NCBI RefSeq assembly: GCF_055900595.2 | Contig: NZ_CM148325.1 | DNA length: 64,000 nt | Strand: one strand, 5' to 3' | Shown here: one piece after another, positions 34,099-37,937 of the stretch | Layout of the letters: every line of letters starts with the position of its first letter | How positions within the stretch are numbered: position 1 is the first letter of the stretch | Notes under the pieces: model-generated | The model's input: only the letters and a program-made list of their open reading frames with translations | What the model was told of the DNA's origin: nothing | Databases searched by the model: none | Position numbers and translations under genes: made by a program

Positions 34099-34344
34099 AT
34101 GACCGATCTCTTTTCCAGCCCTGACCACACACTCGACGCACTTGGCCTGCGCTGCCCGGAACCAGTAATGATGGTGCGCAAAACTGTGCGCAATATGCAG
34201 CCAGGTGAAACGTTGCTGATTATTGCTGACGATCCGGCGACGACACGCGATATTCCTGGGTTTTGTACCTTTATGGAACACGAACTGGTTGCGAAAGAGA
34301 CCGATGGACTGCCTTATCGTTATTTGATTCGCAAATCGGGGTAA
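34099..34344 (+). CDS. tusA: sulfur carrier protein TusA
   Basis: 81 aa; CPxP active-site motif (LRCPEPVM). Confidence 0.9.
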
Positions 34345-34398
34345 GGTGGATCAGGCTAGCGGACCGATCGCGCTCAATTTTGCGGCTTGCAACCGGTT

Positions 34399-34535
34399 TG
34401 TAGGACGGATAAAACGTTCAAGCTGCATCTGGCGATACGGTGCGCAAGGCCTGATGCGACGCTGTCGCGTCTTATCATGCCTACGAGTTCGATGCCCTGT
34501 GTAGGCCAGGTAAGGCGTTTACGCCGCATCCGGCA
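34399..34535. repeat. REP/BIME cluster
   Basis: Imperfect palindromic GCCTGATGCGACGCTG...CGCGTC and GTAGGCC...GCCGCATCCGGCA units typical of E. coli REP elements. Confidence 0.75.
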
Positions 34536-34558
34536 CGCAAACGTAATGGAATGCACAA

Positions 34559-34867
34559 ATGGATTATTTAATTCCAGTTTGTCTGGCATTGCTGGGATTG
34601 CTCGCGATCTTCACCCCCAATTGGCTGATCCCTGTTTTTATCGTCGTGGGGGGATGGCTGGGGGTACTTGCCTGGGGTTGGCTCTGGCTAATGATTTTTT
34701 TACCTTTACTTAACGGTGTCGGGCTTGCTTATGCCCTGTGGTTGATGTTCAAAAGGCCATCCATAGCATCCCGCCTGGTTGCTGCATGCTGTGTTATCTC
34801 CGTCATTCTGATGTTAGCGCTTTATTATGCTTTCCTGACTATGCCGCCGTTCCCGGCCCAGCACTAA
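34559..34867 (+). CDS. hypothetical small Trp-rich membrane protein (102 aa)
   Basis: ATG start with GGAA 8 nt upstream; three hydrophobic segments; convergent with zntA. No homology evidence available. Confidence 0.35.
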   Translation: MDYLIPVCLALLGLLAIFTPNWLIPVFIVVGGWLGVLAWGWLWLMIFLPLLNGVGLAYALWLMFKRPSIASRLVAACCVISVILMLALYYAFLTMPPFPAQH

Positions 34868-34899
34868 GCCTGATAGCCAGAGGCTATCAGGCAACACTT

Positions 34900-37098
34900 T
34901 TACTTCCTGCGCAACAATCTTAACGCATTCGCCGTCACCAGCACCGTCGCACCCGTATCTGCCAGCACCGCCAGCCAAAGGCCAGTCATTCCTAACAGCG
35001 TTGTGACGAGGAAGATCCCTTTCAGCCCCAGCGCAATGGTGATGTTCTGGCGGATATTGGCGTGAGTGGCGCGTGCCAGTTCAATCATCTGCGCCAGGCC
35101 GCGCAGGTGGTTATGGGTTAATGCTGCGTCGGCGGTTTCCAGCGCCACGTCTGTGCCACTGCCCATTGCAATCCCTATGGCGGCAGCTTTCATGGCGGGC
35201 GCGTCGTTAATACCGTCGCCGACCATCGCCAGCGGCGCATGTTGATTCAGCTCGGTCACCGCTTTGACTTTATCTTCCGGCAACAGGCCCGCTTTAAACT
35301 CCAGCCCCAACTCCCCGGCAATTGCCGCCGCTGCGCGTGGATTATCGCCAGTGAGGATCACCCCTTTGACACCCAGGGCGCTCAGTTCGCTGATGGCAGT
35401 TGCGGCGTCGGCGCGCAGGGTATCCTGCAATGCAATTACGCCAAGCACGTCATCGTTACGCACCACCAGTACTACCGTTTGCCCGGCGCTTTCCAGTTCG
35501 TTAATTAAACCAGCAAATGCAACAGCCGGATGTTTTCCGGCAGCGCATATCAACACGCGCTCGCCGTTAATCAGTGCTTCAATACCAGACCCGACCAGCG
35601 CCCGCTGTGATTCGGCGGCGGGAATGGCGAGTTCAGCAACCTGTGCTTCGCGTACGATGGCTTGCGCCAATGGATGCGTCGCGCCTTGCTCGACCGCCGC
35701 TGCCAGTGTCAGCAGTTCAGATTCACTAATACCCGTTGCCGGATGAATCGCGGTAACGCGCGGTTTACCGACGGTCAGCGTACCGGTTTTATCAAACGCC
35801 ACCTGGGTAACACGACCTAGTTGTTCCAGCGCCGCACCGCCTTTAATCAACGCCCCACGACGCGCTGCTGCTGCCAGCCCGGAGGTGATCGCCGCAGGTG
35901 TTGAGATCACCAGCGCACACGGGCAGCCAATCAGCAGCAGCGTCAGCCCTTTATAAATCCACTCCTGCCAGCTTGCGGCAAACAGCAGCGGCGGCACCAG
36001 CGTCACCAGCAGGGCGACGGCCATAATCGCTGGCGTGTAAATACGGCTGAAACGGTCGATAAACCGCTCAATCGGTGCGCGGCGCTCTTCAGCTTCTTCG
36101 ATCAGTTTCAGAATCCGGTCAATGGCGCTGGCACCCGGTTCTGACAGCACTTCCAGCGTTACCAGACGGTCTACGCTGGTGGCGCCTGCAGGAACTTTAT
36201 CACCCGTCGCGCGTTCCACCGGAATGGATTCGCCGGTCAGGGCGCTTTCATCAAAACTGGCAAACGGTGAGAGCAGTTTACCGTCGGCAGGTAAACGCCC
36301 ACCCGCTGCGACTTCAATCACATCGCCCGGACGCAGGCTGTTAATTGCTACCTCTTCACGCTTGCCATTACGCAGGCGCGTGGCGGTTTCCGGTTTCAGC
36401 GCCATTAACGCGCTGACCCCTTGACGCGCGCGGCTGGCGGCCCAGCCTTCCAGTCGTTCACCAATCAAAAATAGCAGCAACACCATCGCAGCTTCGGCGG
36501 TTGCGCCAATAAACAGCGCGCCAATGGCGGCTACGCTCATTAACGTTTCAATGGCGAAGTAGCTGCCCGATTTGATCAGCCGTAATGCCTGGCGCACAAT
36601 CGGGTACAGCCCAACCAGCGTGGTCGCGATAAACGCCAGTTGCCCGAACGGATGATTAAACTGCTCCAGACCCCAGCTGATTGCCATCAACACGATTAGC
36701 GTAATCAGCGGCAGATTCTCTTTCAGGCGTGATTCTTGTTGTTCGTCGGCGGACTGTTCATCGCGCAGGGAATAGCCCGCTTTTTGCACCGCAGATTCAA
36801 CTTGTGCACGGATGTCATTGTCGGCATCAACCACCAGTTTTTCGGTGGCGAACAGCACCTGCACCTGATTCACGCCTGCAAGCTGGCGCACGGCATTTTC
36901 TACCTTGCGCGCGCAGGCGGCGCAGTCCATGCCGCTGACTTTCCAGCTATAGCGGGTGCCGGAGACGTTTTCAGAGAGCGTTGGCGTGCTGGAACATGCG
37001 CCGTCGCAGCAACAGTCGTTGGCGTTCTGTGCCGTGGTTAGCGGTTTGAACGCAGCAAAGTGAGGGGCTTTCTTGCCGTTATTGTCAGGAGTCGACAT
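34900..37098 (-). CDS. zntA: Zn/Cd/Pb-exporting P1B-type ATPase ZntA
   Basis: 732 aa; N-terminal GMDCAAC metal-binding motif, CPC transmembrane motif, DKTGT phosphorylation site. Confidence 0.95.
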   Translation of the reverse strand: MSTPDNNGKKAPHFAAFKPLTTAQNANDCCCDGACSSTPTLSENVSGTRYSWKVSGMDCAACARKVENAVRQLAGVNQVQVLFATEKLVVDADNDIRAQVESAVQKAGYSLRDEQSADEQQESRLKENLPLITLIVLMAISWGLEQFNHPFGQLAFIATTLVGLYPIVRQALRLIKSGSYFAIETLMSVAAIGALFIGATAEAAMVLLLFLIGERLEGWAASRARQGVSALMALKPETATRLRNGKREEVAINSLRPGDVIEVAAGGRLPADGKLLSPFASFDESALTGESIPVERATGDKVPAGATSVDRLVTLEVLSEPGASAIDRILKLIEEAEERRAPIERFIDRFSRIYTPAIMAVALLVTLVPPLLFAASWQEWIYKGLTLLLIGCPCALVISTPAAITSGLAAAARRGALIKGGAALEQLGRVTQVAFDKTGTLTVGKPRVTAIHPATGISESELLTLAAAVEQGATHPLAQAIVREAQVAELAIPAAESQRALVGSGIEALINGERVLICAAGKHPAVAFAGLINELESAGQTVVLVVRNDDVLGVIALQDTLRADAATAISELSALGVKGVILTGDNPRAAAAIAGELGLEFKAGLLPEDKVKAVTELNQHAPLAMVGDGINDAPAMKAAAIGIAMGSGTDVALETADAALTHNHLRGLAQMIELARATHANIRQNITIALGLKGIFLVTTLLGMTGLWLAVLADTGATVLVTANALRLLRRK

Positions 37099-37139
37099 GG
37101 CATCCTCCGGTTAAGTTTTTCTCATTAACCGAAGGATAC

Positions 37140-37161
37140 ACTCTGGAGTCGACTCCAGAGT
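37140..37161. promoter_or_regulatory. ZntR (MerR-family) operator in the zntA promoter
   Basis: Perfect 22-bp palindrome ACTCTGGAGTCGACTCCAGAGT, 42 bp upstream of the zntA start, flanked by TTGACT on the transcribed strand. Confidence 0.8.
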
Positions 37162-37170
37162 CAAGTTTTA

Positions 37171-37797
37171 TCAGAGATACAGCGAGCGGACGATGAGGAA
37201 ATGTCCGGCAAAATAACAAGCGGCGGCAATCGCGTTATCCGCACGGAAGCGTCGGCGATAGTGGCTACCCAGCCAGACAAAGTTACTGATAAACAGCAAC
37301 GAAGCGCCGACAAATGCAGAAAGTGCCGGAGCGGTTGGACGGAAGAACCACAGTTCACCTGCCAGCCATACCATCACCAGCGTCATGCCGATAAACGTGC
37401 AGATAGGCCAACGATACTCTTCCAGACGCGTCCAGATAATCGCCAGTAACAGCGCACCCAGCACCAGCAACACCAGCGGCAAAGGCCAGAAGAATGAGAG
37501 CGTCATCTGGCTGGCGAAATAGATGGTGTACAGCAGGTGTGAGAGGAAAAACGCGCCGATGGCGTACATCAGACGTTGACGTGGCAACAGGGTTAGCGCA
37601 TCGCCCAGCAGTGAGGCGCACAGTCCCGCCAGCACCAGATAACTAATGGCGTCGAACATCGGCGCTTGCCATGCCAGTAACAGCAGGAGAAGAAGGGTTA
37701 ACGGTTTAAACACCCAGCGTTGCCAGGTTGGCCCACGATACGATGCATCCACAGATAGCCATGCGGAAAGACAGACTGCGATAAACGACCAAAGCAT
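37171..37797 (-). CDS. yhhN: YhhN-family inner-membrane protein
   Basis: 208 aa polytopic; synteny. Confidence 0.85.
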
Positions 37798-37937
37798 CTT
37801 AGTTCCTTGAATTCGTTATTTTTTCGTAAGCGGAATGCCTACGGTCTTGCTTCCAGTTTAGTGGCGAGGGTGGACGGATGACAACACCATAACTGGCAGG
37901 GTATGCTTATTTCCGCATTTTCCGATGAGGGATAAAG

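Follow-up and report, generated by a model that had tools for sequence, protein, structure and literature searches.

The 22-bp palindrome at the zntA promoter read as the ZntR operator, and an adjoining RNA hairpin with a possible role against read-through

A stretch of 64,000 nt (contig NZ_CM148325.1, assembly GCF_055900595.2; hereafter the window) contains a perfect 22-bp palindrome shortly upstream of zntA, which raises the question of whether this sequence serves as a protein-binding site, acts at the RNA level, or has no role at all. Direct reading of the window showed that ACTCTGGAGTCGACTCCAGAGT at 37140–37161 is identical to its own reverse complement, with two arms of 11 nt and no gap between them, as the first-pass annotation had described. 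The symmetry ends at both flanks with an A/C mismatch. It is the longest perfect palindrome of the window, all others having arms of at most 7 nt, and a second copy of the operator with up to three mismatches was found neither in the window nor in 100 shuffles. Based on the composition of the window, 0.016 perfect palindromes with an arm of at least 11 nt are expected analytically in 64 kb, and such an arm was reached in 6 of 200 first-order Markov simulations, so that the chance per window is 1.6–3%. By itself, the length is just moderately improbable, because about one perfect 22-bp palindrome is expected by chance in a genome of 5 Mb. This frequency is what would favor a chance or neutral feature without regulatory role, e.g., one built on the SalI-like core GTCGAC. 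The case for an operator stands instead on position, identity to a characterized site of Escherichia coli K-12, and conservation. The features of the locus are as follows:

34900–37098, minus strand: zntA, Zn(II)/Cd(II)/Pb(II)-exporting P-type ATPase, 732 aa (NCBIfam NF033775 and RefSeq annotation)
37100–37139, minus strand: predicted RNA hairpin with 5' arm 37139–37125, 10-nt loop, and 3' arm 37114–37100 (inverted-repeat search and folding)
37104–37108, minus strand: Shine-Dalgarno sequence GGAGG of zntA (direct read)
37124–37128, minus strand: predicted start of PzntA, about 7 nt past the -10 hexamer (~37126; from the geometry of the -10)
37133–37138, minus strand: -10 hexamer TATCCT (direct read; published as TATccT)
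37139–37158, minus strand: 20-bp spacer between -35 and -10, occupied by the dyad (direct count; published as 20 bp)
37140–37161, minus strand: ZntR operator, perfect 22-bp palindrome with the halves ACTCTGGAGTC and GACTCCAGAGT (direct read; published consensus, PMC1526738)
37159–37164, minus strand: -35 hexamer TTGACT, sharing its final 3 nt with the beginning of the palindrome (direct read; published as TTGACt)
37171–37797, minus strand: yhhN, YhhN family, 208 aa, co-directional with zntA (ORF and Pfam)

The gene downstream of the palindrome was identified by a score of 1443.7 bits against NCBIfam NF033775 (cut-off 1240), and RefSeq annotates this ORF as ZntA in genomes that are 100% identical at the locus. 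Read on the minus strand, the 72-bp gap between yhhN and zntA has the order TGA-TAAAAC-TTGACT-CTGGAGTCGACTCCAGAGTG-TATCCT-TCGGTTAATGAGAAAAACTTAACC-GGAGG-ATGCC-ATG, with the yhhN stop codon lying 6 nt before the -35 hexamer and 10 nt upstream of the palindrome. Counting from the near edge of the palindrome to the A of the zntA ATG (37098) gave 42 nt, with 41 bases between them, in agreement with the distance of 42 bp stated before. The hexamer TTGACT had been called adjacent to the repeat on the transcribed strand; in fact, its last 3 nt (ACT) belong to the palindrome as well, so that the two overlap, and it lies on the coding (non-template) strand of zntA.

This layout displays the features of a MerR-type promoter, as the first-pass annotation had proposed. 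The dyad sits between the -35 and -10 hexamers, both hexamers are recognizable as sigma-70 elements, the spacer of 20 bp is over-long (class range 19–20 bp; counted here and published as 20 bp in PMC3431237 and PMC1526738), and a metal efflux gene, zntA, follows directly downstream. As expected for such a spacer, PzntA was missed by a standard sigma-70 scan allowing 16–18 bp. The sole match of that scan was a promoter-like TTGTCA-18-TAAACT at 37855–37884 on the minus strand, in the divergent gap between yhhM and yhhN. Judged from its sequence, it may serve as the promoter of yhhN, and transcripts begun there could read through into zntA.

Over the stretch that runs from the yhhN 3' end up to and including the -10 hexamer, the sequence is identical to that of E. 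coli K-12 MG1655, and the palindrome also equals the 22-bp ZntR consensus of Permina et al. 2006 (PMC1526738), whose table gives CTGGAGTCGACTCCAGAGT with TTGACt-(20)-TATccT for E. coli zntA and lists related sites in Salmonella, Yersinia, Photorhabdus, and Shewanella. The only difference from MG1655 in the whole yhhN-zntA intergenic region is the A-run in the 5' UTR (37116–37120), which has five A residues here and six in K-12; it falls in the loop of the hairpin listed above. At least 5,399 of 5,426 complete E. coli genomes matched a core of 48 bp comprising -35, dyad, and -10 with 100% identity; for the 1.3 kb around PzntA, identity was only 95–99% in 5,417 of the 5,426.

Likewise, Hobman et al. 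2012 give TTGACT as the -35 hexamer of PzntA and a spacer of 20 bp (PMC3431237). According to the passage of that paper citing Brocklehurst 1999 and Outten 1999, ZntR protects both hexamers and the spacer holding the dyad from DNase I, so that the published footprint, the check originally suggested, maps here and not elsewhere. ZntR was described as a weak repressor of PzntA without zinc and an activator with zinc (PMC9189660); the same source states a spacer of 19 bp, whereas direct counting from TTGACT to TATCCT gives 20. Both apo- and Zn-ZntR distort the DNA, as a statement in PMC2611976 citing Outten 1999 has it. The mechanism of the MerR family and the transcription-activation complexes of CueR and EcmrR are treated in PMC9909328.

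Set against these data, there is next to nothing left for chance. The palindrome exactly fills the 20-bp spacer before zntA and coincides with an experimentally characterized site, it is invariant in the genomes counted above while its flanks vary, and the architecture with covarying arms recurs across many phyla (see below). Published footprint and mutagenesis data have already refuted a neutral role.

We therefore read 37140–37161 as the operator of PzntA, the MerR-type promoter of zntA, bound by ZntR and activated by metal, with a probability of roughly 0.97. Sequence, geometry, gene identity, identity to K-12, and conservation come from the present analysis; ZntR binding, footprint, and distortion mechanism are taken from the literature. 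No evidence against this reading was encountered. According to the published mechanism, a ZntR homodimer binds the two 11-bp half-sites filling the spacer between TTGACT and TATCCT. With 20 bp between them, the hexamers are not in phase with each other for RNA polymerase carrying sigma-70, resulting in low basal transcription, and apo-ZntR keeps PzntA weakly active or repressed. Upon binding of Zn(II), Cd(II), or Pb(II), ZntR kinks and under-winds the dyad center, which brings -35 and -10 into register, allows sigma-70 RNA polymerase to form the open complex, and leads to transcription of zntA.

The window itself does not encode a ZntR-like ORF (tblastn, best E = 3.1). In K-12, zntR is unlinked to its target (3.4387 Mb compared to 3.6065 Mb for zntA, about 167 kb apart), and it was found in 5,425 of 5,426 complete E. 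coli genomes; since the gene is nearly universal in the species, the present strain presumably carries it as well. The PDB holds no ZntR-DNA complex, the ZntR structures 1Q08, 1Q09, and 1Q0A being without the DNA-binding domain, and the nearest protein-DNA complexes are those of CadR and CueR. For this reason, we infer the base-specific contacts of ZntR by analogy from these two proteins.

Comparison with known systems showed that the site is the same as PzntA/ZntR of E. coli K-12 (Brocklehurst 1999; Outten 1999; Permina 2006). PmerT/MerR of Tn501 and Tn21 is alike in having a dyad in an over-long spacer, a -35 of TTGACT, and activation by under-winding once metal is bound, but the mer spacer is 19 bp instead of 20 bp, the half-site sequence is another one, and merR is transcribed divergently from the same region as PmerT, unlike the unlinked zntR. 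The E. coli promoters PcopA and PcueO also respond to a metal sensor of the MerR family, CueR, for which structures with DNA and with RNA polymerase have been solved (4WLW, 6LDI, 6XH7); they differ from PzntA in their 19-bp spacer and in the operator ACCTTCCC-N5-TGGAAGGT, and CueR senses monovalent metals. The operators of CadR (Pseudomonas) and PbrR (Cupriavidus) share a dyad of the type TTGAC..TGGAGT...CTCCA..GT and differ in central and outer arm bases; many of them drive a merR-family gene directly and not an ATPase. Thus, the operator of PzntA is already known and adds nothing new to zinc homeostasis. Its value here is that of a positive control. The first-pass annotation, which had offered the site as a test of sequence-level reading in the window, recognized a textbook MerR-type operator from the bare sequence and placed it correctly, which indicates that such reading is sound here.

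The architecture was also searched for in other species using the pattern TTGACNNTGGAGTNNNCTCCANNGT, in which the -35 and the arm cores were fixed and the -10 and several arm positions left free. The scan covered 100,044 species with one genome each and yielded at least 120 loci, with neither Salmonella nor Klebsiella pneumoniae among those listed; 108 distinct sites were analyzed, a set biased to sites matching the operator pattern. Of these 108 listed sites, 93 have TAnnnT at a spacing of exactly 20 bp, compared to 0–6 at the other spacings from 17 to 23 bp. Complementarity at the free arm positions was seen in 73 and 76 of the 108 sites listed, where about 25% would be expected by chance, and 28 of these 108 formed a perfect 22-bp palindrome. 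The listed matches came from Proteobacteria, Acidobacteria, Cyanobacteria, Firmicutes, and Actinobacteria, and the downstream gene among them was a P-type ATPase in Enterobacterales, Vibrio, and others.

A different arrangement was observed in Acidobacteria, Alphaproteobacteria, Gemmatimonadetes, Actinomycetes, and Alteromonadaceae, where the ATG of a merR-family gene lies 5–8 nt past the -10 (loci L004, L007, L044, L065, L069, L081, L105, L110, L119, L122, and L123 among them). This short distance implies leaderless, autoregulated merR-family transcripts.

Since the yhhN stop codon lies so close to the palindrome, we also considered that the latter might work chiefly in RNA, as a hairpin that terminates or stabilizes the 3' end of the yhhN transcript. 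In read-through RNA it would form a 9-bp stem with a 4-nt loop, and no other terminator is present in the 72-bp gap. An intrinsic terminator for yhhN was nevertheless rejected, because the minus strand, on which both yhhN and zntA lie, has no U-tract after the hairpin (GUAUCCUUCGG); a terminator scan of the gap gave zero calls on this strand. Moreover, the dyad is also found where the upstream neighbor is distant or divergent, and in other phyla it fronts unrelated genes. A role chiefly for yhhN RNA is thus quite improbable compared to the operator of PzntA, though as a secondary effect the palindrome may shape yhhN read-through RNA.

On the opposite strand, a consensus scan called 37140–37171 terminator-like, so that the palindrome together with the plus-strand T-run CAAGTTTTAT could be taken for an intrinsic terminator of antisense transcription leaving zntA. 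No gene on the plus strand ends here, however. The T-run merely mirrors, on the other strand, the stop codons of yhhN and an A-rich region (TGATAAAAC), and in Citrobacter and Enterobacter it is not kept as a T-run. The scan is also weak, with four such sites in 1.2 kb where 1.2 are expected. Antisense termination therefore deserves hardly any credence, and the plus-strand call is probably incidental.

Directly 3' of the operator on the minus strand, the same gap contains a second inverted repeat, which is predicted to fold in RNA. Here, GUAUCCUUCGGUUAA (37139–37125) pairs with UUAACCGGAGGAUGC (37114–37100) over 15 bp including two G·U pairs, and folding of 37100–37139 gave -20.8 kcal/mol with a z-score of -7.3 compared to shuffles. 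Its 5' arm consists of the -10 and discriminator of PzntA, and its 3' arm includes the Shine-Dalgarno sequence of zntA. Without this 5' arm, as in RNA beginning at the predicted PzntA start (~37126), folding reached just -7.0 kcal/mol (z = -0.3). The computed probability that GGAGG is unpaired was 0.00 whenever the 5' end lay upstream of 37135, and 0.24 when it lay at 37130 or beyond in the downstream direction. As the 5' arm lies upstream of the predicted start, the hairpin should be limited to transcripts begun further upstream, i.e., yhhN read-through, and such read-through is plausible given the nearby yhhN stop and a gap that is free of minus-strand terminators. An Rfam search returned no family at E<=10 except for one noise match of 9.1 bits.

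An equivalent hairpin was predicted at 25 loci of Enterobacteriaceae, chosen by the operator pattern and covering Escherichia, Citrobacter, Enterobacter, Kosakonia, Phytobacter, Pseudescherichia, Superficieibacter, Pseudocitrobacter, Pluralibacter, and others. Folding energies ranged from -10 to -28 kcal/mol, with z-scores of -3 to -9 at all loci but the Klebsiella-like L025, and just -0.3 to -6.4 kcal/mol were left when folding from the predicted start. The sense strand folded better than the antisense strand in 24 of the 25, by 4.3 kcal/mol on average, as is expected of RNA with G·U pairs. In an alignment of 21 sequences from Enterobacteriaceae, 86.8% of cells were paired, compared to 27–55% with slid partners, and changes on both sides were found in 7 of 18 pairs, compared to 1.5 ± 0.9 in shuffles (0 of 500 reaching this number), both arms being under other constraints as well, namely those of the -10 and the Shine-Dalgarno sequence. 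The covariation score in this alignment was 0.178 compared to 0.05–0.07, so that compensatory changes of the kind expected of an anti-Shine-Dalgarno fold-back hairpin are present in these 21 sequences. RNAalifold on a structure-blind alignment returned a covariation term that was only weak (-0.14), and counting the pairs explicitly, with controls, is more informative here.

Accessibility of the ribosome-binding region followed the same pattern in 22 Enterobacteriaceae, where the median probability that the Shine-Dalgarno window is unpaired was 0.046 for read-through RNA and rose to 0.468 for RNA beginning at the predicted start; in Serratia/Yersinia/Edwardsiella, Photorhabdus/Xenorhabdus, and Erwiniaceae, no such contrast was found. 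Genomes with the yhhN stop 3–14 nt from the -35 have the hairpin, and it is absent where yhhN is 78–189 nt off or the neighbor is divergent, a correlation that, given the clade structure, amounts to few independent events. Altogether, these comparisons make it likely that the hairpin at 37100–37139 is real and conserved.

A further variant was seen in Photorhabdus and Xenorhabdus (L006, L039, L079, and L109), where the -10 is TAGAGT and its downstream complement co-varies (TAGAGTTAAT...ATTAACTCTA). The hairpin of these genera takes in the -10 and ends short of the Shine-Dalgarno sequence, and yhhN lies 117–189 nt upstream or is absent.

With regard to its role, the hairpin resembles an arrangement in the insertion sequences IS10 and IS50, in which an anti-Shine-Dalgarno hairpin has its 5' arm upstream of the start used by the element itself, so that transcripts from outside alone form the hairpin and are left untranslated. 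This fold-back inhibition of read-through transcripts is said to go back to work by Davis, Simons, and Kleckner in 1985 and by Schulz and Reznikoff in 1991. The hairpin described here shares with it a stable structure sequestering the Shine-Dalgarno sequence and a 5' arm upstream of its own start, which in this case is a predicted one. It differs in that the gene concerned is a chromosomal metal-efflux gene, that the 5' arm is formed by the -10 and discriminator of zntA itself, and that the structure was predicted from sequence. By analogy, we tentatively suggest an IS10/IS50-like fold-back insulator within a MerR-type promoter, blocking translation of yhhN read-through transcripts, and regard this role as possible but rather doubtful. 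Transcripts begun at PzntA would not have the 5' arm and would be translatable. Read-through transcripts from yhhN would contain it and be translationally silent, and then probably be subject to Rho. Silent read-through would make ZntA synthesis strictly dependent on initiation activated by ZntR.

While the promoter is known, the doubling of its -10 and discriminator as one arm of a 15–18-bp RNA hairpin is undescribed in the literature searched, where neither a zntA leader hairpin nor yhhN read-through was mentioned. An array paper on Y. pestis treated yhhN-zntA as a single unit. If true, such an insulator would explain how a tightly metal-gated pump is kept silent although a co-directional gene ends just 72 bp before it and the gap has no terminator, would provide a chromosomal example of translational insulation embedded in a promoter, and would bear on the interpretation of yhhN-zntA co-transcription data. 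Read-through from upstream is a known source of leak in biosensors based on PzntA, and the design of such sensors for zinc, cadmium, and lead would be concerned as well.

Apart from the promoter region, some differences to other E. coli genomes were observed around zntA. The spacer between tusA and zntA (34340–34899) measures about 560 bp here compared to 101 bp in K-12 and carries REP-like repeats matching 1–16 places per genome. It also contains a very hydrophobic ORF of 102 aa on the plus strand (34559–34867), annotated as hypothetical and with no match in Pfam, and the full segment was found in just 264 of 5,426 complete E. coli genomes. Similarly, the 1.3-kb region 36600–37900 matched at 99% identity or more in only 8 of 5,425 matching E. 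coli genomes, the others ranging from 95 to 99%. With so few close matches, the window belongs to a lineage that has been sampled sparsely. Strain Z0117EC0005, isolated from a dog, and several human isolates matched best.

Finally, the right half of the operator, GTCGACTCCAGA (37148–37159), recurs at the zntA start codon as ATGTCGACTCCTGA (37085–37096) with 11 of 12 positions identical. The copy at the zntA start is closer still in Enterobacter and Pseudocitrobacter (ATGTCGACTCCAGAG, 13 of 13 positions). It could be a coincidence at the codon level (M-S-T-P-E/D) or what is left of a former half-site; alternatively, it could pair in read-through RNA with the operator's left arm.
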